From Opitutales bacterium (GTDB lineage Bacteria > Verrucomicrobiota > Verrucomicrobiia > Opitutales > UBA9783), in NCBI GenBank assembly GCA_024407725.1, contig JAKSVZ010000017.1:1-15325 (forward strand): 15,325 nt of DNA, in the 5' to 3' direction. The translations under genes and the position numbers were made by a program. Shown piece by piece: positions 1,246 through 15,325 of this stretch. How positions within the stretch are numbered: the stretch's first letter is position 1; each line of letters starts with the position of its first letter. The notes below the pieces were generated by a model. It ran no database searches and was not told the origin of the DNA. It was given only the letters and a program-made list of their open reading frames with translations.

Positions 1246-1330
1246 TGGTGCTCGAGAAGGGATTTGAACCCTTACGCCTTGCGGCACCAGATCCTAAGTC
1301 TGACGTGTCTGCCAATTCCACCACTCAAGC
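1246..1330 (-). tRNA. tRNA-Leu, anticodon UAG, class II (long variable arm), with encoded CCA
   Basis: The minus-strand sequence is GCTTGAG-TG-GTGGAATTGGCAGACAC-G-TCAGA-CTTAGGA-TCTGG-TGCCGCAAGGCGT-AAGGG-TTCAAAT-CCCTT-CTCGAGC-ACCA. It has a 7-bp acceptor stem, a 5-bp anticodon stem, the loop CU-UAG-GA, a TTCAAAT T-loop and a long variable arm. Total length is 85 nt. Confidence 0.9.
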
Positions 1331-1463: not shown

Positions 1464-4265
1464 ATGGCGAACGTAGAAAAAAATGCGCTTCTAAAAGCGA
1501 CGCTTAATCTTCCGAAAACGAATTTCCCCATGCAGGCTCGTTTAGTCCAACGAGAACCGGAACGATTGGAGCGATGGAATCAACAGCATTTATACGCACA
1601 AATTCAAAAGAAAAATGCAAGCGGCAAACCCTTTTTGTTGCACGATGGGCCTCCGTTTACCAATGGTGATATTCACATCGGTACCGCACTCAATAAGATT
1701 TTAAAAGATATCATTTTGCGCTTCAAAAGCATGCAAGGGTTTTCGGCTCCCTACATACCCGGTTGGGATTGCCATGGGCTGCCCATAGAACATAAGGTGG
1801 CTAAAGAGCATCCTGAATTGCTGAAAAATCCAATTGAATTGCGCAAAACCTGTGCTGCGTTCTCATCGGACTTCATTAAACGCCAAGAAGCTCAATTTCG
1901 CCGCTTAGGCGTATTGGCTGACTGGGAACACGCCTATCAAACCAAAGAATCAGGGTATGAAGGTCATGTGCTCCATACCTTTGCTCAATTTGTTCGCGCA
2001 GGGCTTGTTTATCGCAGCAAAAAGCCCGTTTATTGGTCGATTCCGTGCCAAACAGCTTTGGCGGAAGCGGAAATTGAGTATAAGAACTTGGTCAGCGATA
2101 GTATTTGGGTAAAATTCCTGCTGAAAAAGCCCGAAGTTTTAGGTTTAAAGGAACAAACCTACGTTGTTATTTGGACTACAACCCCTTGGACTTTGCCAGC
2201 CAACCGAGCCATTGCGGTAGGTCCTGATTTACGCTATGTCTCTCTTCAAGTTGGATCGGAACACTACATTGTTGCGGAAGAATTGGTCGAAACCTTTAAA
2301 AAAGACTGTCATATCGATCAGGCAACGGTTGAGCATGCGTTCACCGGTAGCCAGCTAGAAGGGCAGCTTACTCAGCATCCATTTCTAAACCGCGAAAGTC
2401 CGATTGTATGCGCGGATTACGTCACGTTAGACACCGGAACTGGATGCGTTCATACAGCCCCAGGGCATGGAATGGACGACTACTTAACGGGTTTGCGCTA
2501 TCATTTAGAGATTGCTTGCCCCGTTGACGATCGAGGGGCTCTTATGGCCGAAGGGGATATGCCGGCCGAACTCATTGGTCAATTGGTATGGACTCCCAAA
2601 GGAGATTCGCCTGCAAACCAAGCGGTTATGGAGCTACTCAAGACCAAAAACGCTTTGTTGCAAGCAACCCCCTATCCGCATTCCTATCCGCACTGTTGGC
2701 GTTCAAAAGCCCCAGTTATCGCGCGCGCACTCCCCCAATGGTTTATTGATTTAGGGATGTTAAAGCAAAAAGCGGAACGTGCGATTGACGCTGTGCAGTG
2801 GTTGCCGGCGTGGGGTAAATCGCGCATTAAAGGTTCGGTTTCTGCTAGACCTGATTGGTGCATCAGCCGTCAACGCATGTGGGGAATTCCATTGCCTGCG
2901 TTTTTTAACGAATCCGGTGAAGCCTTGCTGGACGCAGATGTCATTGATGCATTGGCCGATAAAATAGCTCAACGGGGCACCCAATGGTGGTTCGAATCGA
3001 ACGAAGCTACGTTGCTAGAGGGCATAGCGTTACCAACATCTTGGACAGGAACCTTGCATAAAAGCAACGACACTTTGGACGTTTGGATTGATTCTGGATG
3101 TAGTCATGTAGCGGTGCTCCGCCCTAAAGGATGGGAACCGGCCGATTTATATTTTGAAGGAAGCGATCAGCACCGCGGTTGGTTTCAATCTTCTTTGTTA
3201 ACCTCCTTAGTAAGTGGGGATCGTGCTCCGTACAAAACGGTCTTAACCCATGGATTCTTTGTGGATGAGGAACGCAAGAAAATCTCAAAAAGTTCCGGTA
3301 GTCCCCAAACTGCCGAAGCTTACGTATCTAAATACGGAGCCGATATCTTGCGTTTATGGATTGCTTCTGAAGATTATCGCAATGATATTCCGGTATCCGA
3401 CGCTATTCTTCAGCAAGTTATCGCCACTTATCGAACGATTCGCAATACGCTGCGTTTTCAATTGGGCAACCTCTATGATTTCAAACCAAGCGATGCGATT
3501 GCCTACCCCCAATTATTGCCCATCGACCGTTGGGCTTTGGGTGAAACCAATCGCTTGATTGAATCGGTCACTCAAGCGTACGAAGCGTACGATTTCCACA
3601 AGGTATACCAGCAGATCAACCGTTTCTGTACGTTAACCTTGTCGGCTCGTTATCATGATATTTTGAAAGATCGCTTGTACACTCTCAGCGCTGATGGATT
3701 GGAGCGGCGTTCAGCTCAAACGGTTCTGCATACCATTTGCCAAACGCTCATCCAATTACTCGCGCCCATTTTAACGTTTACGGCCGATGAAGCTTGGGGG
3801 TACTTACAAGGAGATGCGGATTTTGGTTATGGCCAACCCGTCCATCTTAGTGATTTCCCCAAAACGAACGCTCAATGGAATGATGAGGCGTTGGATAAGG
3901 ATTTTACGGAATTATTTCAAATACGTGAAAAAGTGCAAATAGAGCTCGAAAAAGCGCGCCAGCAGAAAGCAATTGGGCAATCCTTAGATGCCCAAATCAC
4001 CCTAACGATTGGGGAACAAAGCCCTGAATGGGCTGTGTTAAAGCGCTACGAGTCCTATTTACCCGAATACTGGATTGTATCGGCAGTTCACTTGATGGTG
4101 GGACCCGAATCGGGTTGTTCGATTGCAGTCAAGCATGCAGATGGGGTACAGTGTCCACGCACTTGGCGGTGGGTTAATCAATTAGTTGAGGTAGAAGGTT
4201 TTGGGCCTGTATCGGAACGATGCGTGCCTGTATTGAAATCTTGGCTAAAAACCCATACAATGTAA
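1464..4265 (+). CDS. ileS: Isoleucine--tRNA ligase (bacterial type 1)
   Basis: 933-aa ORF with a HIGH-type motif (PFTNGDIHIGTALNK), a KMSKS-type motif (KKISKSSG), CP1 editing-domain motifs (TTTPWTLPAN) and DWCISRQRMWGIPLP. The C-terminal zinc-peptide region is present but retains only 2 of 4 Cys (CPRTW...SERCV). Confidence 0.97.
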   Translation: MANVEKNALLKATLNLPKTNFPMQARLVQREPERLERWNQQHLYAQIQKKNASGKPFLLHDGPPFTNGDIHIGTALNKILKDIILRFKSMQGFSAPYIPGWDCHGLPIEHKVAKEHPELLKNPIELRKTCAAFSSDFIKRQEAQFRRLGVLADWEHAYQTKESGYEGHVLHTFAQFVRAGLVYRSKKPVYWSIPCQTALAEAEIEYKNLVSDSIWVKFLLKKPEVLGLKEQTYVVIWTTTPWTLPANRAIAVGPDLRYVSLQVGSEHYIVAEELVETFKKDCHIDQATVEHAFTGSQLEGQLTQHPFLNRESPIVCADYVTLDTGTGCVHTAPGHGMDDYLTGLRYHLEIACPVDDRGALMAEGDMPAELIGQLVWTPKGDSPANQAVMELLKTKNALLQATPYPHSYPHCWRSKAPVIARALPQWFIDLGMLKQKAERAIDAVQWLPAWGKSRIKGSVSARPDWCISRQRMWGIPLPAFFNESGEALLDADVIDALADKIAQRGTQWWFESNEATLLEGIALPTSWTGTLHKSNDTLDVWIDSGCSHVAVLRPKGWEPADLYFEGSDQHRGWFQSSLLTSLVSGDRAPYKTVLTHGFFVDEERKKISKSSGSPQTAEAYVSKYGADILRLWIASEDYRNDIPVSDAILQQVIATYRTIRNTLRFQLGNLYDFKPSDAIAYPQLLPIDRWALGETNRLIESVTQAYEAYDFHKVYQQINRFCTLTLSARYHDILKDRLYTLSADGLERRSAQTVLHTICQTLIQLLAPILTFTADEAWGYLQGDADFGYGQPVHLSDFPKTNAQWNDEALDKDFTELFQIREKVQIELEKARQQKAIGQSLDAQITLTIGEQSPEWAVLKRYESYLPEYWIVSAVHLMVGPESGCSIAVKHADGVQCPRTWRWVNQLVEVEGFGPVSERCVPVLKSWLKTHTM

Positions 4266-4272
4266 TTCACAC

Positions 4273-4794
4273 ATGAAGCGAAAGACATCAAAAACCAGCA
4301 AGTCATCGGACAAGGTTGCTGTTACCCCCAAAGTACTTCCTGCTGCGTCGCTAGCAGATATTTTGGGTTTAAGTACCCCCAACCAACCTAAAGCAGAGCA
4401 TAACAAGAACGAAGTGCCTAAAAAGTGGCGCACGTACTATGACCAACTGATCGCGTTAAAGGAGCAGCTGGAACAAACGGGGCATGTAGCTGCAGAAACC
4501 TACGGCTATTCCAATCCGAAAACACTCATTTTTGATATCAATGCAGCGATTGACCGCATTTTTAAAGGGACTTATGGCCTGTGTGAGTTGACGCATAAGC
4601 CCATTAATCCCGAAAGGCTACGCGCAATGCCTTATACTCGGTATTCATCCGAAGGCCAAAAGCAGCTGGATGAAGAAGCGAAGCTACAGGCATTAAAGAA
4701 CCGTAAAGCGGATGAGGACTATGATTCCGACGGTGCTGAAGACGCGCTCAACAAACTGTTGTTGATGGACGATAACAATGGCGCGAACGAATGA
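4273..4794 (+). CDS. DksA/TraR-family protein with a degenerate (Cys-depleted) zinc-finger region
   Basis: 173 aa. AIDRIFKGTYGLCELTHKPINPERLRAMPYTRYSSEGQ matches the TraR/DksA finger scaffold (RI..GTYG.C..CG..I...RL.A.P.A..C..CQ), but only the first Cys is kept. It has a basic Ser/Lys-rich N-terminus and an acidic C-tail. It starts 7 nt after the ileS stop, and its stop overlaps the lspA start (ATGA). Confidence 0.65.
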   Translation: MKRKTSKTSKSSDKVAVTPKVLPAASLADILGLSTPNQPKAEHNKNEVPKKWRTYYDQLIALKEQLEQTGHVAAETYGYSNPKTLIFDINAAIDRIFKGTYGLCELTHKPINPERLRAMPYTRYSSEGQKQLDEEAKLQALKNRKADEDYDSDGAEDALNKLLLMDDNNGANE

Positions 4795-5231
4795 GGGGGC
4801 GTAAACTTTGCTTTTGTGTTGCAGGGGGCGTTGTGCTGCTTGATCAGCTAACGAAGTATCTATGTGCTCATGCTAACCCCTGCCAAGTCCCCGTTATCCC
4901 TCATTGCTTATCCCTAACCTTTGTCGTCAATACCGGAAGTATTTGGGGTTGGGCTGGCGCTTATACCTCTTTATTGGCTTACGCCGGAGTCGCCTTACTC
5001 TTTGTTTTAAGCGCTTATTTTTTAGCAAAACCACCCGCCTATCCTATTTGGATGGGATTGCTCATCGGGGGAGTCTGTGGCAATACCCTAGACCGTTTAT
5101 GCCGCGGGTATGTAATTGATTTCATCGATTGCTATATCAAAAATTGGCATTGGCCGTGCTTTAATATAGCCGATATCGCTATCACCAGCGCCTGTCTCGG
5201 AATGATTCTTTTTCAACCGAAACCTCGCTAA
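4791..5231 (+). CDS. lspA: Lipoprotein signal peptidase (signal peptidase II)
   Basis: 146 aa and polytopic. It carries the LspA motifs LDQLTK, VNTGSIWG, GGVCGNTLDRLCRGYVIDFID and WPCFNIADIAI. ileS-lspA linkage is a classic conserved synteny. Confidence 0.9.
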   Translation: MRGRKLCFCVAGGVVLLDQLTKYLCAHANPCQVPVIPHCLSLTFVVNTGSIWGWAGAYTSLLAYAGVALLFVLSAYFLAKPPAYPIWMGLLIGGVCGNTLDRLCRGYVIDFIDCYIKNWHWPCFNIADIAITSACLGMILFQPKPR

Positions 5232-5237
5232 TGATCC

Positions 5238-6047
5238 TTATTTTTTATCCTCAAATGTATAAAAATCAGGCGTAATGCTGAAGGATTGAATCGACCCAAC
5301 AAGCGGCTGTCGATCGCGCGCAGCAACCATTAAAGAAAGCATCAGGGTTTGATCCATAAAAGGCACTGAATAGGTGTGGATTGTACTATAACCTTGGTAA
5401 AGCTCTGGATGGGTACATAAAACACTCAGTCCGTTTTGTTCAACAAAGGATAACGTTAAATAAATCCGATCATCCCACGACCGTAGTTTTTGCGAACAAA
5501 ACAACGGCTGTTGTTGAGCCAAACGGACATGCTGTTCTTGAATCGCCTTTTCATCTCCCTGCAGGTTTTTATCGTGCGGTGAACCAATCGGAAAAACAAT
5601 GGAAGTTTTTACAACGCTCGGCGTGGGTAATGGTACTGCTGGTCTCGTGGTAGGTAACGTTGTCCTAGGAACCACACTCGTAGCGGGTCGGTTGGTTCTG
5701 GGAACAATTTTCGTGGTAGGTCGTGTTCCCGATGCTACTTGCCTTACGACCGGCGCTACAGGTTGTCCGGTTGTCACCTCTGCTGGCTGTTCAGAAAAGG
5801 TGAATACGCCAGCAATACGATCCTTTAATTCCGATTTGGACGGATGAACCACGTGCGTTCGATGGATAGTCTGGCCTCCAACGATATAGGTGTAATCAAA
5901 CGTTAAGGATGCCAAGCTCCAAAACCAATAAGAATAAGTCTTAATAGGCACCGTTAAATTACAACGTTGGTTAAAGGGGAGAGCCAAGATGCTGGGGCTT
6001 ACCCCCAGCTCATTGACAATCGTACGGAATGAAGGCGCAACAGGCAT
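5238..6047 (-). CDS. Distal tail / putative receptor-binding protein: two globular halves joined by a Pro/Thr/Arg-rich repeat linker
   Basis: 269-aa ORF and the last gene of the operon, starting 3 nt after the upstream stop. The central tract is RPTTKIVPRTN-RPATSVVPRTT-LPTTRPAVPLPTP. The function is inferred from position only. Confidence 0.4.
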   Translation of the reverse strand: MPVAPSFRTIVNELGVSPSILALPFNQRCNLTVPIKTYSYWFWSLASLTFDYTYIVGGQTIHRTHVVHPSKSELKDRIAGVFTFSEQPAEVTTGQPVAPVVRQVASGTRPTTKIVPRTNRPATSVVPRTTLPTTRPAVPLPTPSVVKTSIVFPIGSPHDKNLQGDEKAIQEQHVRLAQQQPLFCSQKLRSWDDRIYLTLSFVEQNGLSVLCTHPELYQGYSTIHTYSVPFMDQTLMLSLMVAARDRQPLVGSIQSFSITPDFYTFEDKK

Positions 6048-6050
6048 AAA

Positions 6051-7739
6051 TCAGCGAGAAGCAATCATCCAGAATTGTTTCAGCTCCCCGTTTTCAACCA
6101 TATTAAACGGTTTTAGGGAAAGCTGCGTGTTTTCAGGCAACTCATTCGCATTAATCATCACCTGCTTTGATTTCGTTCCAATCGTTAACTGCGTATAGCG
6201 CCCCATATCCACCTGAGAATCGGAAATGGGCGACATATGCGGGAAATAGGTTCTATTTCCGGAACTTTGATCGGCAAAGCGTATCTTGGGGTTATCCGTG
6301 ATGGTACGGATTCGGTGCGTATGCATCAACTGACAGATATCGTTAGGTCCTAATTGCTTAGGGGCTCCAAACTTTAAAACGGTCGTTCCGGTATCCAACG
6401 AAATCCGTTCTTCCTGTACGGGTAAACTCAAAGTGCCCCACGCGGGTTCGCCATCTAAAAACGACAAAGCGTGGCCGATAAAAGGTCCCGATAGATCCTC
6501 GTCAATCAAGGTTAATTGTCCCTCATAGCGCAAACACCCTATCGATTGATACAGCGTGGCTGCTAAACCGACCGGAGGCTGCGTTGTTTTGCCCGTAGAA
6601 ATAATGTTTTGATAGATCCTAGATTGCGCATTGGTTGCACAAATTTTTACCGAAAATGGACGTTCGGTATCCATTTCATCGGTTACGTAATGAATACTAG
6701 CGCTGATTGTTTCATAGGTAGCGTCGCAACCCATCCAAGGCGCAATCGCTCCTTCTAGTAACTCATTCGGTAGATTAGACATCCGCTGAACGTTGGAAAT
6801 TTGCATCGATTTTGCATCAACCAAACAAGGAAAGTGCTTTTTCCACCATTCGTCGCTTTCGGGTTGAATCGGTTGCGTCTGTACCCATTGTTCCTGCACA
6901 TGAGCATGCGACCCTTCCAATTCAACTGTCAATACCAACGCATTCAGTTCTTCACCGGTTGCATTTTCGGGATAGCGATCGACCGTAACGCTTTTCCACG
7001 TAGCCCCATCGGCTGAATGCGAATGTTCGTATTTCAGAACAACCGCTGCTATCTTTAAATCATTGCGGGGAATGATGGAAAACTGAGTCAATTGGCGTAG
7101 GGACAACGATTGTTTTTGTAAGGCTGACGCACAAGCAAAATGAATCGTTGGAGTTTTCGTCGTATAATCGATCCAAGCAGTAGCGTTGGGGGTCCAACGT
7201 AATAGCTTTAAAATCGCTTCACTACAACTGCAGTCCTTGATGGTTTCGCAAGGAAACTCGAAATCAAAACCGGCAATAGACCCACAATCAATCGGTGCAT
7301 GATGCGCTTTCGCATAATCAACAATTGCCTGTAGGCACTGACGAGCATTAATCGTATTTCCTTGGTCATCTTGACCCAGCAAACACACACTACGGTTAAT
7401 CACTTCTGTGGTGGTCGCTGTACCATCTTTAAAATAGCGCCAAGGTTGTTGAAAAACCAAATGCTCGAAATACCAAAATGGACCGGACGCTTTGTAATAA
7501 GCGGATTCAGAATCCGCTGTATAATACGTTGGCGTTTGGGTAATACGTCCCCAAAACCATCGAGTGGCATCCTGAAAAATTTCAATGATTGCATCGCATT
7601 CGAACACGGGTGCTGAAGCATCCGTTTGAAAAGTGACCGTATCCGTCCCTTGATTCAGGATGTGGCGCGTAACATTAGAAATACCCCATTCGGACAAAGG
7701 TTTGGTTTGTCCGCGATAAGACAGGGTCCATTGCTTCAT
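6051..7739 (-). CDS. Large tail structural protein (hub / baseplate-like; the N-terminus is reminiscent of the gpD / Mu gp44 style)
   Basis: 562-aa ORF, the largest in the cluster, located after the neck genes. The N-terminal pattern is WTLSYRGQTKPLSEWGISNVTRHILNQGTDTVTFQ...IIEIFQDATRWFWGRIT. The family assignment is a visual impression and is unverified. Confidence 0.35.
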   Translation of the reverse strand: MKQWTLSYRGQTKPLSEWGISNVTRHILNQGTDTVTFQTDASAPVFECDAIIEIFQDATRWFWGRITQTPTYYTADSESAYYKASGPFWYFEHLVFQQPWRYFKDGTATTTEVINRSVCLLGQDDQGNTINARQCLQAIVDYAKAHHAPIDCGSIAGFDFEFPCETIKDCSCSEAILKLLRWTPNATAWIDYTTKTPTIHFACASALQKQSLSLRQLTQFSIIPRNDLKIAAVVLKYEHSHSADGATWKSVTVDRYPENATGEELNALVLTVELEGSHAHVQEQWVQTQPIQPESDEWWKKHFPCLVDAKSMQISNVQRMSNLPNELLEGAIAPWMGCDATYETISASIHYVTDEMDTERPFSVKICATNAQSRIYQNIISTGKTTQPPVGLAATLYQSIGCLRYEGQLTLIDEDLSGPFIGHALSFLDGEPAWGTLSLPVQEERISLDTGTTVLKFGAPKQLGPNDICQLMHTHRIRTITDNPKIRFADQSSGNRTYFPHMSPISDSQVDMGRYTQLTIGTKSKQVMINANELPENTQLSLKPFNMVENGELKQFWMIASR

Positions 7740-7741
7740 GA

Positions 7742-7861
7742 TTAATGACGAGTATTGTTGATTTGTTCACGCAACTCCTCTATCTGACCCGCTAAATCAG
7801 CAAGTTGGTTTTCGTGCTCTTTGATCGCATCTAATAATTCATAATAATCATTTTGTTTCAT
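7742..7861 (-). CDS. 39-aa coiled-coil micro-protein (MKQNDYYELLDAIKEHENQLADLAGQIEELREQINNTRH)
   Basis: The internal ATG at 7861-7859 lies 7 nt after a perfect GGAGGA (complement of 7869-7874). The 66-aa version in the ORF track would overlap the upstream gene by 95 nt. The sequence is heptad-like. Its stop lies 2 nt before the 562-aa gene. Confidence 0.5.
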   Translation of the reverse strand: MKQNDYYELLDAIKEHENQLADLAGQIEELREQINNTRH

Positions 7862-8249
7862 GTAGATTTCCTCCGTAAATTTTATAAAGGGTATAAGAAG
7901 CGTTCCCTTTCGAATGCGTTTGAATCGTGCATAGGGTAGCATCTTCTAAAAGAGTGGTTTGTTTGGCACTCGGGTCTTCAAAATCAATCGACAGTTGACC
8001 TTTGGCATGGATCAACTGACTGGCATGCGTTAGGCTGTATTGAATCGCTTCTGCTTTACTTGCGTGACGCTTGCTAACCTCCAAAACAATTTCTGTCTGT
8101 TGATTATCCCGTCCTAACGCTTTAGCAAAGTCCGCATGGATCGCCTTACGCCATTGAACCGTCCAGTGAGCCGTTATCTCTAAGCGCGTAATGGCTTCGT
8201 TGGTCTTTTCTCCGCCCGACAAAACATGGCTATTTAGGGTAATTTTCAT
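7848..8249 (-). CDS. Neck / tail-proximal structural protein of unknown family
   Basis: 133-aa ORF. Its start forms an ATGA overlap with the upstream gene. Its position lies between the head-completion genes and the tail genes. Confidence 0.4.
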   Translation of the reverse strand: MKITLNSHVLSGGEKTNEAITRLEITAHWTVQWRKAIHADFAKALGRDNQQTEIVLEVSKRHASKAEAIQYSLTHASQLIHAKGQLSIDFEDPSAKQTTLLEDATLCTIQTHSKGNASYTLYKIYGGNLHETK

Positions 8250-8698
8250 AAGGCAACTTCAAAATTGGTCGCTTCAAAATTCACCTGAAGCGCATTTTTC
8301 CTATCAACCGTTAACCATTCCCATGGGGCGTTTTCAGCTAATCTAAACTTGCCTGTCCATAGGTTTTTGACCGTTAACGTAGCCCCTGCAAGCGCAAAAC
8401 TCACCTGTTCGGCATAATCGACAAAATTGCTTTTATCGGCAGTTGTAATCGATTGCAACAAGGTGCATTTTAACGCTAAGGTGTCCCAGCAAGGGGCTAC
8501 CAATTCAGGCAGGGTTTTTAACGGGAACGGTAGGTCGACAAACAATACATACGGTGCTGCTTGTACCAAGCGCCTTTGAGTCCGTTTGTTGAGCAAAAAA
8601 TTATCATTTGCAACAATCTTGGCTGTCGCCTTTAAGTCCGGTTGTTTTTGGAAAAAGCTAACAACCTCTGATTGAATAGCTCGCAAAACAGGCTTCAT
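8246..8698 (-). CDS. Head-closure / tail-completion-like protein (DUF3168 / Mu gp37 style)
   Basis: 150 aa. The N-terminus (LRAIQSEVVSFFQKQPDLKATAKIV...AAPYVLFV) resembles the pattern of tail-completion families. There are ATGA overlaps on both sides. Confidence 0.4.
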   Translation of the reverse strand: MKPVLRAIQSEVVSFFQKQPDLKATAKIVANDNFLLNKRTQRRLVQAAPYVLFVDLPFPLKTLPELVAPCWDTLALKCTLLQSITTADKSNFVDYAEQVSFALAGATLTVKNLWTGKFRLAENAPWEWLTVDRKNALQVNFEATNFEVAL

Positions 8699-9120
8699 AA
8701 TCCTTTTAAGGTTGATTGCTTCACGTCATGCTCTCGGTGATCAACGGCTTCTATACGCGGTTCCCACTGCTTATCGTGGGTATTCCATTCCGTAAACAAT
8801 GCATCTAATGTTTTGCGTGCTTGTTCTGCCGCACGGATTTGGTCTTCCGATGCCATAAGCTCAGGCATTCGGGTTTGCAAAGCTTCAATCACCAAATGGC
8901 AAGCAGCTTGCTTACAGGCATCCGGAAGATGATTGGCTTTGACCGGATTAGGCAACCAAGCACTGGGAATCCGTTGTCGTATATAAGCACATACATCGGC
9001 AATAATACCCTGCAAAACCGTTCCTTTGGGATTAAGGGCGCTGAGTTGCTCTTCAATCAGATAATCCGATAGGTCTTTGGGTTCTAATAGAATCCACTGT
9101 AAGGTAATAGGCTGTATCAT
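8695..9120 (-). CDS. Head-tail connector / adaptor (DUF1320 / gp6-like style)
   Basis: 141 aa and the first gene after the capsid gene. Its helical pattern (DLSDYLIEEQLSAL...LQGIIADVCAYIRQRIP...ACHLVIEALQ) is typical of head-tail adaptors. Confidence 0.5.
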   Translation of the reverse strand: MIQPITLQWILLEPKDLSDYLIEEQLSALNPKGTVLQGIIADVCAYIRQRIPSAWLPNPVKANHLPDACKQAACHLVIEALQTRMPELMASEDQIRAAEQARKTLDALFTEWNTHDKQWEPRIEAVDHREHDVKQSTLKGL

Positions 9121-9133
9121 AAAAATGGGTTCG

Positions 9134-9156
9134 ACGGGATGGCGTTACCATCCCGT
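9134..9156 (-). promoter_or_regulatory. Stem-loop directly downstream of the capsid gene (partial terminator or mRNA stabiliser)
   Basis: ACGGGATGG (9134-9142) and CCATCCCGT (9148-9156) form a perfect 9-bp stem with a 5-nt loop. It sits in the largest intergenic gap of the operon (49 nt). On the minus strand a TTTTT run follows 8 nt later, just before the next ATG. Confidence 0.5.
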
Positions 9157-9169
9157 TACGCTAATGGGT

Positions 9170-10069
9170 TTAGGCGTCTTTAATTTTCCAATGAATGAGG
9201 TTTGTTTTCGAAGTCACTGCAATCGTCGAGAAGCACTCAACAATGATATCGGTATACTTAGGATATTCTTCTACATATACGCGGAAGAAGTGACCTTCGG
9301 GTGACAACGTGACAAAGTACTTCAAGTTGGATAAAGCATCCTTAAACATAGAATCTTCGGCGTAAAAAGCGAAAACGCTATTGTCTTTCAGTTGCCCTTG
9401 AATACCGAGGTTGTTTTGCTTTAAGAGCTGAACCGCATCCACACGTAACATTTCTGCTAATGTTTCACGGCTCATTTCCGCTGCAATGCGTGCACCGGCA
9501 TTCTCTTGTGCGGCATAACAATCCTGTCGGATAAACCAAGCGGGTTCAGAGTAGAGCAAGCGATTGGGATAAAATCCATGCTTCTTGCAAGCCGCAACTA
9601 ACGCTTTACGGATATCTGCATCCGGAGAAGCATCGTTCGCCCAAGTTAAGTCTCCGCCATCAGCAGCATTGGCAATCAAGGCTTTGATCACGCGACGCAA
9701 CTCGTTGCGATAGATTTGTTCTTGAAGGGCATAAACATAGCGGGTTTGCCAATCATTTCCATTGATATCATCGACATCAATGCGGATTCCTAATCCCTTA
9801 TTTAGGGTTTTTGCGGTTATAGATTCACCTTGGAAATCCATGTATTTAAAATTGCTGCCGGTTGCGCGGATATCATCATCCTCAGAGCTGAAAAACTGAT
9901 CGGTTGGTGCCTTTTTGTGCTCAAAGCGGCGTGCAACCGGAATTGCAGGAGCAATGAAGTTTAAGGTTTTCTTTAAATCCAAATGGTTGTCCTTACTGTT
10001 TGCAAATTCAGTAAGTTCCACCGACAGATGGTTCGTGTTATAAGGTAGGTCGTTTACTATTGTAGTCAT
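9170..10069 (-). CDS. Major capsid protein (HK97 fold expected; lambda gpE / Mu gpT-like by size and position)
   Basis: 299 aa, immediately after the protease/scaffold and decoration-like genes (lambda-like order C/Nu3-D-E), and followed by a stem-loop. The segment FIAPAIPVARRFEHKK...FKYMDFQGESITAKTL is reminiscent of E-like capsid proteins. Confidence 0.65.
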   Translation of the reverse strand: MTTIVNDLPYNTNHLSVELTEFANSKDNHLDLKKTLNFIAPAIPVARRFEHKKAPTDQFFSSEDDDIRATGSNFKYMDFQGESITAKTLNKGLGIRIDVDDINGNDWQTRYVYALQEQIYRNELRRVIKALIANAADGGDLTWANDASPDADIRKALVAACKKHGFYPNRLLYSEPAWFIRQDCYAAQENAGARIAAEMSRETLAEMLRVDAVQLLKQNNLGIQGQLKDNSVFAFYAEDSMFKDALSNLKYFVTLSPEGHFFRVYVEEYPKYTDIIVECFSTIAVTSKTNLIHWKIKDA

Positions 10070-10077
10070 ATCAATTA

Positions 10078-10506
10078 TTACTTAAGTATGTTTTGAGGAA
10101 GCGTCGTTAAGGTTTCAACAAGGGATCCTTTGGTTCCATCGGTTAACGCAATACCAATGAAAGGCATTTCTTTGGTAAGTTTTTTAGCCTTGCCGTTATC
10201 TGCTAAACCCAAGGGTTCTTCAGCTTTAATGGCTTCATGGACTAAAATGCGTGCACTTTGATCGGTGCAGCTTAAAGGCTGAATGGAGATGTGAGCATCC
10301 TGACCCTCTGTTGGCGTTGCATCGCGTAATGCTATACCGAATGGATATTCGGCTTTTCCGCATGCCTTAACATAACTTTGGCTTTCGTCAAAGGTGACCA
10401 GCATGCCTTTTGTGATAGGATTTCCCTTCACGCTTAACGTAAAGGATCCTCTGTGATAGCTAAATGTATTCTCATTTGCCATAATAATAGTGTGTAGTTG
10501 TTTCAT
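10078..10506 (-). CDS. Head decoration / cement-like protein (DUF2190 style)
   Basis: 142 aa, or 134 aa if it starts at MANENTF (10482). It looks beta-rich, with a repeated G(I/V)AL motif (FGIALRDA, IGIALTDGTKG). It sits directly upstream of the capsid gene. Confidence 0.45.
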   Translation of the reverse strand: MKQLHTIIMANENTFSYHRGSFTLSVKGNPITKGMLVTFDESQSYVKACGKAEYPFGIALRDATPTEGQDAHISIQPLSCTDQSARILVHEAIKAEEPLGLADNGKAKKLTKEMPFIGIALTDGTKGSLVETLTTLPQNILK

Positions 10507-10524
10507 AAAATTAATATCTATAGG

Positions 10525-11385
10525 TTAAAATTGTTCTTCGTCTCGTTGAACCGCGCTCCAAGCTTCTGGATAGTTTTCGCCGGTTTGTTTCATACGTAAC
10601 TGAACCTTTTGCGAAAAATCCAAAATGCGCTTCTTGTCGCTGCGGCTTTGCTGTTTGTGCAAATTATGCGAATGCGCTTTGTGCTTCGATTTTGGCTTAG
10701 CAACCGCCTTGTTTTTGGCTGCCTTTACCACCTGCTTCTTCGCAACCGGTTTCTTAACAACAGGAGCGCTTTGGGGAGCAGCATCCGGCGTTACCTGAAA
10801 TAGCCACTGATAGCCTTTGCGTATCTGCTGCCACATCCAAAGGAACCAATGACAGCAACCTTTCATCAGAGCGCATATCCAGCAATGCGTGGATTTGGCT
10901 TTTTGTTGCTTCAACACCCGTAACTTTTTCAAACACTCCTGTGCTTCATCGAACGGAATAGGTTCGACCGGTAAATTCGGTTGTTGGGTAAGTCCGACCG
11001 ACAATAGGTTGATGGGATGGAAGGTTGATTGATGCGCACCCTTGATCAAAACCCAACGGGGCGATAAATGGGTATAAACGCGATTGGCAATCAGTTCATA
11101 ACTGCAGCGATTCCATTTGATTTTTACAAACAAACCATCTTTGTTAACGGCGATGCGTCGCACAAACCCATAAACTTTATGCGGTACCGGATGCGCCGGA
11201 TTGTTGAACAAAGGATCATCGGGATGACCAATGTACACCGGAATTTTATCGCAGCGTAAGCGTAATTTCAGGCGCTTGCTTTTGGATGCACAACGCTTGG
11301 CATCCGCCATTTCTATTGTTTGTTTCCCATAAGGATGGTTGAACGTACCATAAGGAGATAATTGTATCCAATTTTTCATAAACAT
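10525..11385 (-). CDS. Prohead protease / scaffold fusion (Mu-like prophage I protein style)
   Basis: 286 aa. The N-terminus (WIQLSPYGTFNHPYG...IPVYIGHPDD...GLTQQPNLP) resembles the Mu gpI family. The C-terminus (ILDFSQKVQLRMKQTGENYPEAWSAVQRDEEQF) looks scaffold-like. It starts 1 nt after the portal stop. The middle contains an odd W/C-rich patch and a Lys/Ala/Pro basic tract. Confidence 0.6.
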   Translation of the reverse strand: MFMKNWIQLSPYGTFNHPYGKQTIEMADAKRCASKSKRLKLRLRCDKIPVYIGHPDDPLFNNPAHPVPHKVYGFVRRIAVNKDGLFVKIKWNRCSYELIANRVYTHLSPRWVLIKGAHQSTFHPINLLSVGLTQQPNLPVEPIPFDEAQECLKKLRVLKQQKAKSTHCWICALMKGCCHWFLWMWQQIRKGYQWLFQVTPDAAPQSAPVVKKPVAKKQVVKAAKNKAVAKPKSKHKAHSHNLHKQQSRSDKKRILDFSQKVQLRMKQTGENYPEAWSAVQRDEEQF

Positions 11386-11386
11386 T

Positions 11387-12628
11387 TTATTTTTGAAGAC
11401 TTTCCTCAGACTCCGCTACCGGATGAACGCCCCACTTTTGCAGGGTGTCTTTGACGTCTAGAGGTGGATTAATTCCAAAATGTTCACGGATATCGTTAAC
11501 GCTGAGCGATACTCCCATATCGTAAAGCGTTTTGATAATGGCCAAATCGTTATTTAGGTTCTTGTTGGATGACGATTTGAGCCGGAAATACGCTTTCGGT
11601 TGCTTAATGCCTTCAAGGCGCAACAATACTTCACGATCCACTTGTTCATTCAGGGTCTCTGAAATCCTTTGTGCATCTTCTTCTTCCAAGATATTGTTTT
11701 CGTTGCGTTGAAGGGTAACGCCGGTAGGGTTTTCCTTGCTCGAATTGATTAAGCGGGTACCCAACCATGTCAGATACATAAGGTCGTCTATACGTTTGAC
11801 GAATTCTGGGTAAGGCAATACTCCTTTGCCGGAAATATCAATGGCCTGAATATCCGTTCCGTGCGACATCACCGCACAAAATTCAGCACTAAAATTTTTT
11901 ACCGCATCGCACGCCATATCCCATTCCTTAGAACCGGGACGCGCTTGTGTAACACCCTTCACGCCAGGCATACCATTGCGTTCGCAATAGATGAGCCAAT
12001 CGCGCAACGAGAGGTGTTTAAATAGATAGGCAATGGAGCTGGATTCCATCAATCCATCGCCCGTGGTTACTAACCATTCACCAGACGTAGTTGGAACCTT
12101 TTTGTGGGTTTCGGGATCTACAAACTGTAAACGACCCCCTTCGTTTTCGAAGAAAAACAGCGGTACAAAGCGAAATTCTGCGGTTAATAACGCGGTGTTG
12201 TCTTGCTTGAACGGCTTGAACACCACTTCATGCACCGCATATCGTTTACCAACCGCATCCATCATCTGATGAATGAGCAACGATAAACCGCCATGCTCAT
12301 TTTCATCGAAAGCATTCACGCAACTCAGGTTGTTATAAAACTGCTCCAAAATGGCCTTTTGACGCATGGCCTCGTCGGAACTATCAAGGGTTAGAATTTC
12401 CCAATCGAGACGCGCAATGGACTTTTTACGTTTAGAAATAGCCCCCTGTAATACATCATCCCGTTGCTCAATCGCATCCCAAATCATGGCTGCCTGCTTC
12501 AAGTGCCCAGCATGAAAATCGTCTAAAATTTTAGAAAGCGATTGGGGAGTAAGGGAACGAATAGGGTTCCAGCTTTGCGCACTAAAGCGCTCCGTTCGGA
12601 TAGAAGTGGTATAAATGTTTGTTTGCAT
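11387..12628 (-). CDS. Portal protein (Mu gp29 / DUF935-like)
   Basis: The start is reassigned to the ATG at 12628 (MQTNIYTT...), 5 nt after the TerL stop. The track's upstream start at 12754 would overlap TerL by 121 nt. The product is 413 aa. The motif block HLKQAAMIWDAIEQRDDVLQGAISKRKKSIARLDWEIL resembles the DUF935 family. Confidence 0.75.
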   Translation of the reverse strand: MQTNIYTTSIRTERFSAQSWNPIRSLTPQSLSKILDDFHAGHLKQAAMIWDAIEQRDDVLQGAISKRKKSIARLDWEILTLDSSDEAMRQKAILEQFYNNLSCVNAFDENEHGGLSLLIHQMMDAVGKRYAVHEVVFKPFKQDNTALLTAEFRFVPLFFFENEGGRLQFVDPETHKKVPTTSGEWLVTTGDGLMESSSIAYLFKHLSLRDWLIYCERNGMPGVKGVTQARPGSKEWDMACDAVKNFSAEFCAVMSHGTDIQAIDISGKGVLPYPEFVKRIDDLMYLTWLGTRLINSSKENPTGVTLQRNENNILEEEDAQRISETLNEQVDREVLLRLEGIKQPKAYFRLKSSSNKNLNNDLAIIKTLYDMGVSLSVNDIREHFGINPPLDVKDTLQKWGVHPVAESEESLQK

Positions 12629-12633
12629 AAAAA

Positions 12634-13980
12634 CTAGAAGGTTAAGCGTTGAATTTGCATAGGGCCTGAAAAGGAGGGGTGCGAAAACGTTTCGGCTGCA
12701 CAGAAACCGGTCGATACTGCTTGATTCGCATGAATAGCTAAAGCCAATCCCCAAAAACGATCCGCATGCCCATTGGGTCCGTGTTTGGCGGTTAAACGAC
12801 CCTGTTCGTCAATTTGCATGCTCAGTAAGTCCGTTACCAATTCTTCATCAGACGATAAACGCACCATTTGACGATCTACCTGCGCTTTTAAGGCGTAGGC
12901 CAATTGCTCCTTGGTGTTTTGGGTAAATTGAATCCCTTCGATTCGATCGTCTCCAAAACGCTTTTGTGCGCGCTCTAAAAACTGCCGCCCCATGCCTGTT
13001 TGATCCACACAAACGCGTTGTACATTAAAGCGGTGGAACAATTGGTCGAAGACCGATTCTTGTTGATCGAACGGCGCATCTTTTAAGCATTGAATGTGGC
13101 GTAGATAAAACACCTCGTTAATTTGTTCTAAAATTACAAAGGTGCTTAAGTCATTGGTTCGCGCCAAATCGACGCCCATGAGCATAACGCCATCGGAAGT
13201 TTGCCGCCAATCCTCAGCATCCGAATAGAAACACTTTTGAATCGCCTCGTAGGATAACAGTGAATCCGAATGATCCATGGGCTGACACATGTATTCCTGC
13301 AAAAAGCTTTTTTCGGTCGCACAGGATTGTTTAATAAAATTGTAATAATCACCGGCATCCATTGTTTGACGGGGATCGTCCGGCGGTAATTTGGCTTTTA
13401 ACTTTTCTAAAAATCCTTGGTCTAAAGCATCCACCAAGGTCACCCGATGCAGCGAAATTTGTTTGGGATTCCCTTCGTTACGAGCTTCCTCTATTAAACG
13501 ATTGAAGAAGTTATGAGCTCCGCGATGGGTTGAAATAATCTCCAATTGCCCACCCCAGGTAATTCCGGGATAAGCAATGTTGTACAGAGCCTCCGGATCT
13601 TCATGGAGCGCAAATTCATCAAGAATACGCGATCCTCGCTTGCCTGCCTGCGCATTAACTGCCGACGAAATCAGGGTTAACGTACTTCCATTGCGCAAAC
13701 GTAACACCGTACGCAAATTCGAAGCACGCCCCAACAGACGTTCGTGATACGCTTGATTTAAAATAGCCGCAAAGGATTTGCAGTCGTTCAAAAACAGCTG
13801 TGCTTGCTGCAAATCACGCGAACAAATCCAAACGTGGGTGTTCGCATGGGTTATAGCCTTACGCAACGCCCGATAAGCCGTTGCCCAAGATAAACCAATC
13901 TGCCTCGATTTCTCCATTACCTTAATCCGGGAAGAATCTTGTATCCACTTCGCTTGATAAGGTAAGAAGAACGTCTTCAT
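12634..13980 (-). CDS. Terminase large subunit
   Basis: 448 aa. It has the N-terminal LPYQAKWIQDSSRIKVMEKSRQIGLS with a deviant Walker A, KSRQIGLS (compare lambda gpA KSARVGYS and T4 gp17 SRQLGKT). Walker B is SRILDEF. RNaseH-like nuclease Asp blocks are present (LMGVDLARTNDLS, VCVDQTGMG, HADRFWGLALA). Confidence 0.85.
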   Translation of the reverse strand: MKTFFLPYQAKWIQDSSRIKVMEKSRQIGLSWATAYRALRKAITHANTHVWICSRDLQQAQLFLNDCKSFAAILNQAYHERLLGRASNLRTVLRLRNGSTLTLISSAVNAQAGKRGSRILDEFALHEDPEALYNIAYPGITWGGQLEIISTHRGAHNFFNRLIEEARNEGNPKQISLHRVTLVDALDQGFLEKLKAKLPPDDPRQTMDAGDYYNFIKQSCATEKSFLQEYMCQPMDHSDSLLSYEAIQKCFYSDAEDWRQTSDGVMLMGVDLARTNDLSTFVILEQINEVFYLRHIQCLKDAPFDQQESVFDQLFHRFNVQRVCVDQTGMGRQFLERAQKRFGDDRIEGIQFTQNTKEQLAYALKAQVDRQMVRLSSDEELVTDLLSMQIDEQGRLTAKHGPNGHADRFWGLALAIHANQAVSTGFCAAETFSHPSFSGPMQIQRLTF

Positions 13981-14300
13981 AGCAGGTTTAACTGATCCTC
14001 CAAACTGCTAAGCATTTCTTCCGACAAATCAGATTCCGCTTGCGCACTGTTCACTTTGCTACAAACCGCAAATAACTCTCGGTAGTTGTGCAGGAGCTTC
14101 GTTAACACTCCCACAATTTCTTTGGTTGTACTAAAATTGGCCGATTTAGCATCCACGCATAATTGGTCAAATAAACGCTCCCAAAGCATCCCCATCGATT
14201 GCTCAGCAACATGCATTTGCTCTAATAAGGATGCAGCGTTTTTAGCCCGCTTAATACGGTCTAAATGCTCGTTAAATTCTACTGGGGTCGCGCTTTTCAT
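13977..14300 (-). CDS. Small helical protein; candidate small terminase or packaging accessory (by position only)
   Basis: 107-aa ORF. Its stop overlaps the TerL start (ATGA). Its start overlaps the upstream wHTH gene by 29 nt. No recognisable motif was found. Confidence 0.35.
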   Translation of the reverse strand: MKSATPVEFNEHLDRIKRAKNAASLLEQMHVAEQSMGMLWERLFDQLCVDAKSANFSTTKEIVGVLTKLLHNYRELFAVCSKVNSAQAESDLSEEMLSSLEDQLNLL

Positions 14301-14547
14301 TTTCTAAAAAATCAATGCCTTGAGCGGATATTTTGTATCGGTATGCTTGCGGACAAATATCATTGCTTAGCCGCAGCACAAATCCCTTGTCTTGCAAATA
14401 AGCTAGTTCCTTTTCCAACAAGCGCCTGTTTGCCGGCAATCCGTGCAAAAATACACCTTGCTTGAGCGTTTCAATCGGTAACGATACCGGATAGGCTGAC
14501 TCTAACTGTAACAGGAGGGTCCTACGTACAAATTCATTTATTTTCAT
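14272..14547 (-). CDS. Winged-helix DNA-binding protein (possible DNA-recognition partner of the terminase, or a regulator)
   Basis: 91 aa. It has a wHTH-like layout: helices (RRTLLLQLESAYP / LPIETLKQGVFLHG / NRRLLEKELAYLQDKGFV) followed by a beta wing (LRLSNDICPQAYRYKISAQG). AAGGGA lies 4 nt upstream of the ATG. Confidence 0.45.
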   Translation of the reverse strand: MKINEFVRRTLLLQLESAYPVSLPIETLKQGVFLHGLPANRRLLEKELAYLQDKGFVLRLSNDICPQAYRYKISAQGIDFLENEKRDPSRI

Positions 14548-14555
14548 AAAATCCC

Positions 14556-15020
14556 TTAACGTTTAAAGTCCACCAACGTATATCCAAAATAGAGCCCCAT
14601 AATGGCTGACAGAAGGTGCGTGTCGAGCGGGGTAATTACAACTCCGTGCAGTTGAATCCAAGTCAGGTTTTCAACCCCAGAACAAAAGCTAAATAATTTG
14701 CGCGTTGTTTTTGTAATCCCAATCGTAATGGGAATGTTGGGACAAAAAACAGCTACTAGCTTCGGCCATACAATTACAAAAAATACAGCCGATAAGGCGA
14801 TGATGCGTCGCACTAACTGTAAACTGGACGTCATACGCGCGCGATTAACCATCGCTGCTTGAACGTTCGAACGCCGCAAGGTTAAGACACGTTCATAGTG
14901 ACGTGCCATAAATATAAAACTTATCAGGCGCATACTGCTCCCGATCATGGATGAACCCAACAGCGCATATAGCTCAGATGGGATAGGGTTAGCGAACATG
15001 TTTTGTGTCATTTCCGCCAT
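14556..15020 (-). CDS. Small integral membrane protein (about 3 TM segments); a holin-like role is speculative
   Basis: 154-aa ORF and the first gene of the operon. Hydrophobic segments lie at about aa 17-39, 69-92 and 126-147, separated by Arg-rich loops. No family was recognised. Confidence 0.4.
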   Translation of the reverse strand: MAEMTQNMFANPIPSELYALLGSSMIGSSMRLISFIFMARHYERVLTLRRSNVQAAMVNRARMTSSLQLVRRIIALSAVFFVIVWPKLVAVFCPNIPITIGITKTTRKLFSFCSGVENLTWIQLHGVVITPLDTHLLSAIMGLYFGYTLVDFKR

Positions 15021-15110
15021 TATATAGATATTTGTATTACCCTTAATGATTAAATGTGATATAATATATAAATTTTTTTAAATTTAACTAAAAAGACTAT
15101 TTGGTGCTAA
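15021..15110. promoter_or_regulatory. AT-rich upstream region of the phage-like operon. It contains a perfect extended -10 (TGATATAAT, 15057-15065), but on the + strand
   Basis: The region is about 80-85% A+T by eye and lies directly upstream of the first operon ATG (15020). The minus strand offers only weak -10/-35 candidates (TATATT / TATTAT). The plus strand has TG-n-TATAAT with a weak -35 (TTACCC, 17-nt spacer). Confidence 0.3.
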
Positions 15111-15170
15111 ATGGTTTTTGGGGGTACAGTAAAATCAGCAGAAACGCCCACACAAACCACTTGTTGTGCG

Positions 15171-15202
15171 AACAAAAACAAAAAAGCCCCAACAATGGGG
15201 CT
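15171..15202 (-). terminator. Rho-independent terminator of the right-hand flanking gene
   Basis: The minus strand reads AGCCCCA-TTGT-TGGGGCT (7-bp stem, positions 15185-15191 and 15196-15202) followed by TTTTTGTTTTTGTT. It lies 31 nt downstream of the flanking gene's TAA. Confidence 0.75.
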
Positions 15203-15225
15203 AAACTAACAAAATAGAAGCGTTG

Positions 15226-15325
15226 ATGGTTATTTACTTACCGTCCTGCATTTCCGCAGCAACCAACTCATCAAAGGTATCACGATGGGGATACGCATCT
15301 AGGATCTTAAACGCACGTAGGTTTT
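15226..15325. repeat. Right arm of the terminal inverted duplication (pairs with 1-100)
   Basis: See the left arm: 96/100 identity in inverted orientation, with the outermost 55 nt exact. Confidence 0.9.
15234..15325 (-). CDS. 3' end of an unidentified gene (partial), paralogous to 1-80. It reads ...NLRAFKILDAYPHRDTFDELVAAEMQDGK*
   Basis: The frame is open from the window edge to the TAA (complement of 15234-15236) and is followed by a good terminator. It is 96% identical to the inverted left-end copy. Confidence 0.5.
   Translation of the reverse strand, partial: NLRAFKILDAYPHRDTFDELVAAEMQDGK

Follow-up and report, generated by a model that had tools for sequence, protein, structure and literature searches.

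Gene content and organisation of the locus

The stretch of DNA analysed here, referred to as the window, is the entire 15,325-bp contig JAKSVZ010000017.1 of an Opitutales metagenome-assembled genome (MAG). Its minus strand carries, from position 15020 down to 5238, one block of about 9.8 kb with 14 co-oriented open reading frames (ORFs), named g01 to g14, most of which resemble the packaging, head, neck and tail genes of tailed phages (Table 1). The locus is a candidate gene transfer agent (GTA)- or viriform-type element with an unusually reduced tail, lying outside the RcGTA family. An earlier note on this DNA had described a compact operon with three ATGA stop/start overlaps, and the coordinates agree with it: the overlaps are found at 13977-13980, 8695-8698 and 8246-8249, and the inter-ORF spacings, ranging from -29 to +49 nt, are 3, 2, -14, -4, -4, 49, 8, 18, 1, 5, -4, -29 and 8 nt from the g14 end upwards. 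Only 6 nt separate the end of the block from the lspA stop codon, as that note had stated, and the block starts about 160 nt (roughly 150 nt in the note) after the terminator of an unrelated gene.

The sequence TATATA directly abuts the first ATG of g01 (15020), and the true start is therefore probably the ATG at 15011. A promoter-like motif, CCAAyGCAAnnnTTGnnGA followed after about 17 nt by TAAACT, is found upstream of g01 in relatives of the locus (L004, L009, L012, L015, L017, L019, L024, L025 and L067, where L numbers denote the loci compared) that belong to clades with only about 50% capsid identity. The window holds a degenerate form of it in 15021-15120 (AATCATTAAGGG ... TATATA). The shared motif combines a -35/-10-like pair with a CCAAyGCAA element, an arrangement that suggests a promoter, and it could be the site of a common regulator or sigma factor. 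No convincing terminator was found between g14 and lspA.

Table 1. Coordinates of the operon genes and of neighbouring features in the 15,325-bp window.
Feature	Position	Strand	Description
g01	14556..15020	-	154-aa (or 151-aa) membrane protein, specific to this element family
g02	14272..14547	-	91-aa winged-helix protein
g03	13977..14300	-	107-aa helical protein; stop overlaps TerL start (ATGA)
g04	12634..13980	-	large terminase TerL, ATPase and RNaseH-like nuclease
g05	11387..12628	-	Mu-type portal, 413 aa from ATG 12628
g06	10525..11385	-	Mu gpI-like head protease; C-terminal tail short, lysine-rich and scaffold-like
g07	10078..10506	-	cement/decoration-like head protein
g08	9170..10069	-	major capsid protein (supported by concordant marginal matches); NCBI MJ218_03530
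g09	8695..9120	-	head-tail adaptor, Mu gpJ / DUF1320-like
g10	8246..8698	-	150-aa neck protein in tail-terminator position; role from position alone
g11	7848..8249	-	133-aa tail-tube/Hcp/Dit-fold protein
g12	7742..7861	-	39-aa coiled coil directly upstream of the hub gene; 39 aa as in L001
g13	6051..7739	-	562-aa baseplate hub / central spike, gp27 / Mu gp44 / VgrG fold
g14	5238..6047	-	269-aa distal protein with Pro/Thr-rich linker
AT-rich intergenic region	15021..15184	-	presumed sole operon promoter; about 160 nt before g01 ATG
Intrinsic-terminator-like hairpin and T-run	15185..15202	-	AGCCCCATTGTTGGGGCT then TTTTTGTTTT; ends unrelated upstream gene (stop near 15236)
Host flank ileS - dksA/TraR-like - lspA	1464..5231	+	convergent with the operon; outside the element; conserved insertion context
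lspA	4791-5231	+	Peptidase_A8, E 1e-29
dksA/TraR-like gene	4273-4794	+	173 aa, Lys/Ser-rich N-terminus; zf-dskA_traR, E 3e-7
ileS	1464-4265	+	Pfam match
tRNA-Leu	1246-1330	-	sole tRNA in the window, 4 kb from the cluster
GT4 glycosyltransferase	107-1228	-	Pfam match

Packaging and head genes

The large terminase (TerL) matches both Terminase_6N (E 5e-12) and Terminase_6C (E 3e-12). In the 60 sequences compared, conservation reaches at least 90% at its motifs RQxG, LDEFA and ST and at the nuclease positions GxD..R..D, D..G.G and GH.D..W; with ATPase and nuclease motifs thus preserved, the enzyme looks functional. The ratio of non-synonymous to synonymous substitution rates (dN/dS), calculated throughout between the window and two relatives at about 5% ileS protein divergence, is 0.10 for this gene. 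Directly in front of TerL lies g03, which was found in 48 element loci and precedes TerL directly every time; it returned no match in Pfam or in a profile search of PDB, and its position makes it a candidate for the oligomerisation part of a small terminase. The profile of g02 matches PadR/MarR-type winged helix-turn-helix (wHTH) proteins (best E 8e-4) as well as phrog_3983 and phrog_436, which supports the fold that had been proposed for this gene. Because its homologues lie directly upstream of TerL (0-600 nt) in 21 viral-like contigs, a regulatory role is less likely than terminase-associated DNA binding, and g02 (dN/dS 0.02-0.04) is probably a small-terminase-like partner of the terminase, judging from its position.

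The first gene, g01, is called as 151 aa in the relative L001. Its product has one strong hydrophobic helix (residues 73-91) and weaker segments, and it matches phrog_38283, a family of unknown function (E 1.8e-7; dN/dS 0.14). It is present in 33 element loci and in none of the phage-like contigs; a role as a holin-like or release factor is speculative.

Among the head genes, the portal g05 gives the strongest family match (Portal_Mu, PF06074, E 1.4e-50), together with the PDB portal 8rka_A (E 2e-6; presumably from phage JBD30) and the Mu portal 9khx_X (E 2e-3), and evolves under strong constraint (dN/dS 0.03). The mechanically delimited g05 ORF, starting from TTG 12754, would overlap TerL, and the L001 portal is called as 413 aa. 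The protease g06 belongs with Mu-like_Pro (PF10123, E 1.5e-9). A head of Mu/lambda-like type had been proposed; these two families sustain the Mu-like part of that description and not the lambda-like part. The decoration-like g07 matches phrog_673 (E 7e-10) and Phage_cement_2 (E 8e-4, below the Pfam cut-off). For g08 all matches are weak, namely Phage_capsid_4 (E 6e-4), phrog_1005 and a profile match to 3bjq_A (E 0.004); being several and in agreement, these marginal matches support its identity as the capsid protein. All named members among its 93 homologues come from Opitutales, Puniceicoccales or Verrucomicrobiota.

Neck and tail genes

The adaptor g09 aligns by profile with Mu gene product J (9khx_A, E 0.02, near full length) and with DUF1320 (8rka_B, E 0.04), and matches Phage_connect_1 and phrog_477 weakly; each match is marginal and all are concordant. 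For g10, 77 element loci carry a homologue, as do 35 viral-like contigs, where it stands directly before a tail protein of about 310 aa; the g10 family (42 members) matched nothing in Pfam, PHROG or a profile search of PDB sequences.

The family of g11 (39 members) likewise found no match in Pfam or in the profile-versus-PDB sequence search, and its fold became apparent from an AlphaFold2 (AF2) model with a predicted local distance difference test (pLDDT) score of 78.5 and a predicted template modelling (pTM) score of 0.71. All top Foldseek matches of this model in PDB are tube-fold proteins (E from 8e-3, probability up to 1.00), including a chain of the 80alpha baseplate model, the AFP tube, Hcp, the Pam3 tube and the virion and neck chains of RcGTA, and in BFVD the top match comes from Halogranum tailed virus 1 (tail tube protein, E 2.5e-4). 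The gene is well conserved (dN/dS 0.07-0.10), and on the modelled fold its product presumably forms a ring between neck and hub. Since this 133-aa "neck" ORF has a tail-tube fold, the earlier statement that the locus has no tube or tape measure is not strictly right in its first half; no tape measure lies at the locus, as stated.

For the hub g13 (dN/dS 0.06), the AF2 model (pLDDT 77, pTM 0.65) gave 46 Foldseek matches in PDB at E<1e-3. The best is a chain of the Algoriphagus extracellular contractile injection system (eCIS; 7aef_q, 7e-13), and others include the MuSo2 43-kDa tail protein (3cdd, 1e-11), the Mu baseplate chain 9ki1_G, Mu gp44 (1wru), the PVC central-spike structure, VgrG1 and the pyocin R2 hub. 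A hidden Markov model (HMM) built from 27 small ORFs at the position of g12 recovered 55 ORFs of 39-70 aa there, carrying the motif EQLxNL[KR]; in close relatives g12 is 95-97% identical, with a dN/dS of about 0.1. The possibility that g12 is a vestigial tape measure was rejected: the HMM misses the long ORFs lying between g11 and g13 in 12 loci, these ORFs resemble a fibre with its assembly chaperone, and small g12-like ORFs occur alongside them in at least three of the 12. At the distal end, g14 has no Pfam or PHROG family match and is the most variable gene of the operon, being 78% identical to its L001 counterpart (83-98% for the other genes), with lengths of 269, 258 and 253 aa and the highest dN/dS (0.28-0.30); it is a candidate receptor-binding or tip protein.

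Phage life-cycle functions

In Pfam and PHROG searches, none of the 14 ORFs matched an integrase, repressor, replication or lysis function, and no toxin gene was matched among them; no sheath or tape-measure gene is present at the locus, and baseplate wedges are likewise missing. No tRNA was found at either cluster junction, an Rfam scan of the window returning tRNA-Leu alone, and no att-like repeat was found, the longest word common to both junctions (11 nt) being equal to the maximum in shuffled sequences. These Pfam/PHROG, tRNA and junction-repeat searches bear out the list of missing functions (integrase, repressor, replication, endolysin and att repeats) with which the earlier note had argued against an ordinary prophage.

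The same picture extends beyond the window. Life-cycle genes were not found in the 10-kb flanks of relatives. On the 113-kb contig of L001 the cluster is preceded by CesT, dnaX, acpP, fabF and two unknown ORFs and followed by lspA-dksA-ileS. No recurrent recombinase appeared among 140 flanking ORFs from 35 species, which matched housekeeping families instead, in a Pfam screen that does not list families seen in only one or two flanks. Integrase, replication and lysis modules beyond the cluster, or clean att sites, would have spoken for a mobile element; neither was found in the relatives' flanks, that of L001 included, and the cluster adjoins lspA even where ileS is 72-73% identical.

Selection and composition

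All 14 genes are intact in the window and the two relatives, with dN/dS values of 0.02-0.30 as compared with 0.07-0.24 in host neighbours, thus well below 1 in every gene, as had been predicted for a maintained locus. The G+C content at third codon positions (GC3) is 0.448 in the cluster and 0.463 in host genes, and codon frequencies correlate at r = 0.92, so that the visual impression of a composition like that of the ileS operon holds under measurement. Across species, the core ORFs are intact in 72 of the 80 loci kept for comparison, and the widespread inactivation that would have contradicted a maintained function is not seen. The synonymous rate (dS) is raised in g07 (0.45-0.63) and g08 (0.80-0.87) relative to the other cluster genes (0.10-0.36) and to host genes (0.26-0.43), which suggests allele exchange or diversification of the capsid surface.

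Distribution, synteny and inheritance

When one genome per GTDB species was searched with the capsid profile, relatives were identified in at least 180 species representatives, of which all named ones belong to Opitutales, Puniceicoccales or Verrucomicrobiota. The 80 loci kept for comparison are all labelled Verrucomicrobia, Opitutia, Opitutales or Puniceicoccales, and carriers include the isolates Intestinicryptomonas porci and Cerasicoccus maritimus. Iterative searches showed that the order g01-g14 is conserved in relatives down to about 40% capsid identity.

The cluster adjoins lspA-dksA-ileS in six loci, with ileS identity as low as 72%, the flank of the window being shared with L001, L008, L013, L015 and L022; the same lspA-adjacent position across species, which the earlier note had put forward as a check on its reading, was thus recovered. 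Elsewhere the cluster adjoins purH in 12 species and ligA in three. The flank pairs seen in these and other relatives comprise a TLC/aminotransferase pair with prs-lpxD-ompH-bamA-dnaB, DJ-1/FeS-assembly genes with PEP-CTERM genes, galK-epimerase-UDPGP with LysM/purH, and ligA with a class II aminoacyl-tRNA synthetase gene. Within the six ileS loci, the identities of TerL, portal, capsid and hub correlate with that of ileS at r 0.99-1.0, with values falling into two clusters; in the purH and UDPGP sets, the correlation with the adjacent host gene is r 0.5-0.9.

This distribution bears on the possibility that the locus is a functionless, deletion-trimmed defective prophage, kept by chance or recently acquired. 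The few loci with split core ORFs (8 of 80) and the differing locations among deep clades fit such an origin. The 14 intact ORFs with their low dN/dS and host-like codon usage speak against it, as do the conserved order among relatives of a capsid found in at least 180 species, and the position kept at 72% ileS identity. Because a neutral remnant would not survive such divergence, we regard a functionless remnant as very improbable.

A short g11-g12-g13 junction like that of the window is present in 42 of the 80 loci and a different distal module in seven. In 12, a fibre-like ORF and a chaperone-like ORF are inserted between g11 and g13; in some Puniceicoccales these measure 470-740 aa and about 100 aa, the smaller resembling a fibre-assembly chaperone (for example L040, 9015-10792; the fibre-like insert also occurs in L054, L057, L062, L064, L066, L068, L082, L083 and L087). 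Four loci (L018-L020 and L024) have large proteins downstream of g14, to which the four Laminin_G_3 matches of the flank screen are attributed. Fibre-like inserts and large downstream proteins imply that lineages differ in host-recognition equipment. The hub also behaves differently between clades: in the purH-adjacent clade (a subset of L028-L081) g13 is 30-46% identical while the capsid is 67-88% identical, and in the clade of the window the hub is more conserved than the capsid, so that the rate of hub evolution is lineage-specific.

TerL is adjacent in 37 of the 56 loci with enough upstream sequence. One large clade, which includes I. porci, has a cluster that starts at the portal and follows galK, epimerase, UDPGP or ligA (L028, L039, L043, L044, L046, L049, L056, L058, L060, L063, L071, L078 and L080). 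In L034 and L047, which share the same portal-to-hub layout, g04-g03-g02 lie inverted about 1 kb upstream. The inverted TerL-g03-g02 genes indicate that the packaging module has split off, as in multi-locus GTAs.

Exchangeable tail parts also invite comparison with helper-dependent elements, such as a satellite of the type of capsid-forming phage-inducible chromosomal islands (cf-PICIs) or an incomplete locus dependent on a resident phage or on other loci for its tails, lysis or induction. Capsid-forming PICIs carry their own head and packaging genes and lack tail length-determination and lysis functions. The Opitutales locus has the same combination, and the fibre/chaperone-like ORFs or different tail modules of some lineages look like modular tail exchange. 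Such an element is improbable here. Neither the window nor the flanking DNA of relatives yielded an integrase, alpA-type regulator, primase/replicase or att site; across species the cluster keeps its chromosomal place and diverges together with host genes; and a satellite that borrows its tail would have no use for the hub and tube-fold protein encoded at this locus.

Relation to phages

No match to the capsid was obtained by tblastn against 50,697 phage records. IMG/VR contains 61 relatives at 26-43% identity; a few are copies of the same element and most are phage-like, many of them on contigs of 30-58 kb. Median lengths are greater in the viral-like contigs than in the elements for the portal (541 vs 410 aa), the protease (406 vs 255 aa) and TerL (512 vs 455 aa). 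In the phage-like contigs, the g10 homologue is followed by the tail protein of about 310 aa, a g11 homologue, an ORF of about 225 aa, one of 1,100-1,240 aa and further tail genes, with a hub homologue 3.7-8.6 kb downstream in the few that have one. The ORF of 1,100-1,240 aa has the size of a tape measure and is not found in chromosomal loci. The family of the 310-aa protein occurs on 27 viral contigs and in one intermediate element type, and in no chromosomal locus; neither it nor the other tail genes of the phage-like relatives had a PHROG or Pfam match, and the ancestor may have had either a sheath-tube pair or a siphovirus tube with a chaperone. The earlier note had regarded the occurrence of the same 14 genes in an ordinary phage as evidence against its reading; no such phage was found, the capsid being without a match in the phage records and the nearest viral contigs in IMG/VR being long-tailed.

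Four IMG/VR contigs (L088, L089, L144 and L148) hold g01-g14 together with a 281-aa homologue of the 310-aa protein between g10 and g11, still with no tape-measure-sized gene; this type may be an intermediate in tail reduction.

Neighbour-joining (NJ) trees place the chromosomal elements apart from viral contigs, with weak bootstrap support; portal and TerL separate cleanly, and for the capsid the separation is 98%. The simplest reading of these sequences is a single capture of a long-tailed, Mu-like phage, followed by trimming.

Host flank and contig ends

The dksA/TraR-like ORF sits between ileS and lspA and had been omitted when the flank was first described as ileS-lspA. Two further genes were observed near the cluster in element-bearing genomes, a CesT-type chaperone (L001, 150-611) and a TLC ATP/ADP translocase (L004, 3742-5250), which hint at a host-associated or energy-parasitic lifestyle of some Opitutales.

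The contig is bounded by terminal inverted repeats (1-104 and 15222-15325, 99 of 104 nt identical), whose equivalent in L001 spans at least 278 bp at 87% identity (4593-4869 and 19914-20190). Two paralogous ORFs that converge on each other (251 and 131 aa, neither with a Pfam match) form the repeat with their 3' ends. The pair of break points common to three independent assemblies (the window, L002 and L003) is accounted for by this repeat. A circular contig was ruled out, the ends being inverted and not direct repeats. As the cluster, lspA-dksA-ileS, tRNA-Leu and the GT4 gene all lie between the two repeat copies, the 15-kb segment could in principle invert.

Interpretation and significance

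Taken together, the data make it very likely that this is a vertically inherited, domesticated phage-particle locus descended from a Mu-like tailed phage. Synteny, co-divergence with the host, purifying selection and host-like codons all favour a domesticated or GTA-like locus over an active prophage, in agreement with the earlier note. As an overall explanation, we consider a chromosomally fixed Mu-like remnant that is kept by purifying selection and forms GTA-like particles to be the best available, and a reasonably probable one. The specific claim that the locus makes GTA-type particles is plausible from its gene content and is held with somewhat more doubt than conviction. The fullest version, an order-wide ancient viriform of Mu-like origin whose DNA-filled head and tape-measure-less tail transfer host DNA between cells, is more tentative still.

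For GTAs, the published criteria are particle proteins, endogenisation without replication or integration, and vertical inheritance with co-diversification, and, further, the packaging of random host DNA, a head too small for the element's own genes and delivery to cells (PMC9662315). With respect to particle proteins, the locus has TerL, portal, protease, capsid, adaptor, neck, tube-fold and hub genes, with a minimal tail; with respect to endogenisation, it has housekeeping flanks, host-like codons, no replication or integration genes and no att site. Vertical inheritance is indicated by distribution, by a position conserved within clades and by the correlation of cluster identity with that of neighbouring host genes. 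The shortened portal and protease/scaffold, and the packaging genes lying apart in some clades, give indirect hints of a small head.

In the mechanism that we propose, the host would switch on the single promoter upstream of g01; protease-scaffold, capsid and portal would assemble a prohead, into which TerL with g02 and g03 would package DNA, and g09 and g10 would close the portal. The g11 ring and a trimeric g13 hub, with g12 and g14, would then form a stub tail for attachment or delivery to related cells, and release would proceed through functions encoded elsewhere or through the g01 membrane protein.

The main rival is a particle that serves the host with no gene transfer, from a locus that would be domesticated and expressed but would deliver no DNA to recipients. 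It might act as a phage decoy, a DNA-release vehicle, a capsid-based compartment, or a killer or defective particle like PBSX, and the evidence for domestication fits this and a GTA equally. A tube-fold ring with a hub and no tape measure makes the ability to inject doubtful, TerL is non-adjacent in a large clade, and the hub outpaces the capsid in the purH-adjacent clade, as would a component of surface recognition or an arms race. What counts against such a particle is that purifying selection acts strongly on TerL, portal and the small-terminase candidates, with motifs intact, which implies that the packaging of DNA matters; that adaptor, neck, hub and a variable distal protein are kept, which serve attachment or delivery and not a mere container; and that the operon has no toxin or lysis gene. 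On these grounds we judge a particle of this kind unlikely.

Several observations weigh against a domesticated locus that makes GTA-like particles. The capsid and g09 annotations depend on marginal E-values, and particle production, packaged DNA and transfer are inferred from genes alone. We know of no characterised precedent for DNA delivery by a tail that lacks tape measure, sheath and baseplate wedges. Lysis genes were found neither in nor near the locus, and g01-g04, including TerL, are non-adjacent in 19 of 56 loci, a count made on adjacent sequence only. As to single descent, location differs between deep clades, so that relocation or several acquisitions are possible; a single origin receives weak bootstrap support (2-12 of 30 replicates); the dS of capsid and cement genes is about three times that of their neighbours, pointing to possible allele exchange in place of pure vertical descent; and the split core ORFs in eight loci reflect either decay or errors of assembly.

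To our knowledge, GTAs have been characterised by experiment in only a few lineages, namely Alphaproteobacteria, Brachyspira, Desulfovibrio and Methanococcus; all of them have siphovirus-like tails and none is from Verrucomicrobiota, and a literature search found no earlier description of such an element in Verrucomicrobia or Opitutales. If the GTA interpretation is true, this would be the first GTA-type system known in Verrucomicrobiota and an independent case of virus domestication. Host DNA would be transferred among bacteria that include symbionts of the gut, the rumen and the termite gut, and Opitutales of animal guts would thus exchange genes by a route so far unrecognised. Many carrier species are uncultured gut and termite symbionts; the two cultured carriers, I. 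porci and C. maritimus, make the hypothesis directly testable. The locus also offers structural studies a natural minimal head-tail machine, composed of a head, an adaptor, one tube-fold protein and a hub, and g01, g03, g10, g11, g12 and g14 provide anchors for annotating families with no assigned function (g01 matching only phrog_38283).

Comparison with known systems

The hub fold matches the hubs of eCIS and pyocins, and the locus has a capsid, portal and terminase and no sheath, which sets it apart from tailocins and eCIS. Functional temperate prophages carry integrase or transposase, repressor, replication and lysis modules, none of which is contiguous with the cluster.

With capsid-forming PICIs the locus shares a compact head and packaging module that lacks a full tail. 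These satellites, in contrast, have integrase, regulators, replication genes, att sites and strain mobility, of which none was found here; with no integrase, att site or replication module and a stable position, the locus does not group with phage satellites (PICIs or cf-PICIs).

PBSX-type defective prophages, BaGTA and VSH-1 are, like this locus, host-retained particle loci unable to propagate as viruses. Their tails remain full-length, and most have regulators and lysis genes of their own, whereas the Opitutales locus keeps only the tube-fold protein and the hub of the tail.

The best relatives of individual proteins are found in Mu-like transposable phages, through Portal_Mu, the gpI-like protease, the gpJ/DUF1320 adaptor and the gp44-like hub. 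The similarity is confined to head and hub: transposase A/B, repressor, Mor/C, lysis, sheath, tape measure, wedge and fibre genes are missing, the element is not mobile, and portal and protease are about 25-40% shorter than in phage-like relatives. As transposase, sheath and tape measure are all lacking, Mu-like phages represent the type of the ancestor and not the family of the locus.

RcGTA (Rhodogtaviriformidae) resembles the locus in its overall design. Both have an integrase-less, regulator-less head-tail operon, chromosomally fixed, vertically inherited and under purifying selection, with lysis and possibly more encoded elsewhere. In each, the candidate small-terminase proteins are small and the hub has the gp27/gp44 fold. 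The lineages are unrelated, the portal, protease and adaptor being of Mu type in Opitutales and of HK97 type in RcGTA. Moreover, the Opitutales locus lacks a tape measure, a tail chaperone pair, a distal tail protein and a megatron homologue, comprises 14 genes in about 9.8 kb in a Verrucomicrobiota host, and is a system so far known through its genes. Similarity is at the level of folds, those of the tube-fold protein and the hub, and the locus falls outside the RcGTA family because its portal and protease families (PF06074 and PF10123) differ and it has no tape measure. The view that it departs from the RcGTA layout and represents a distinct lineage is upheld by the Mu-family portal and protease, the missing tape measure and capsid homologues whose named members are all from Verrucomicrobiota.

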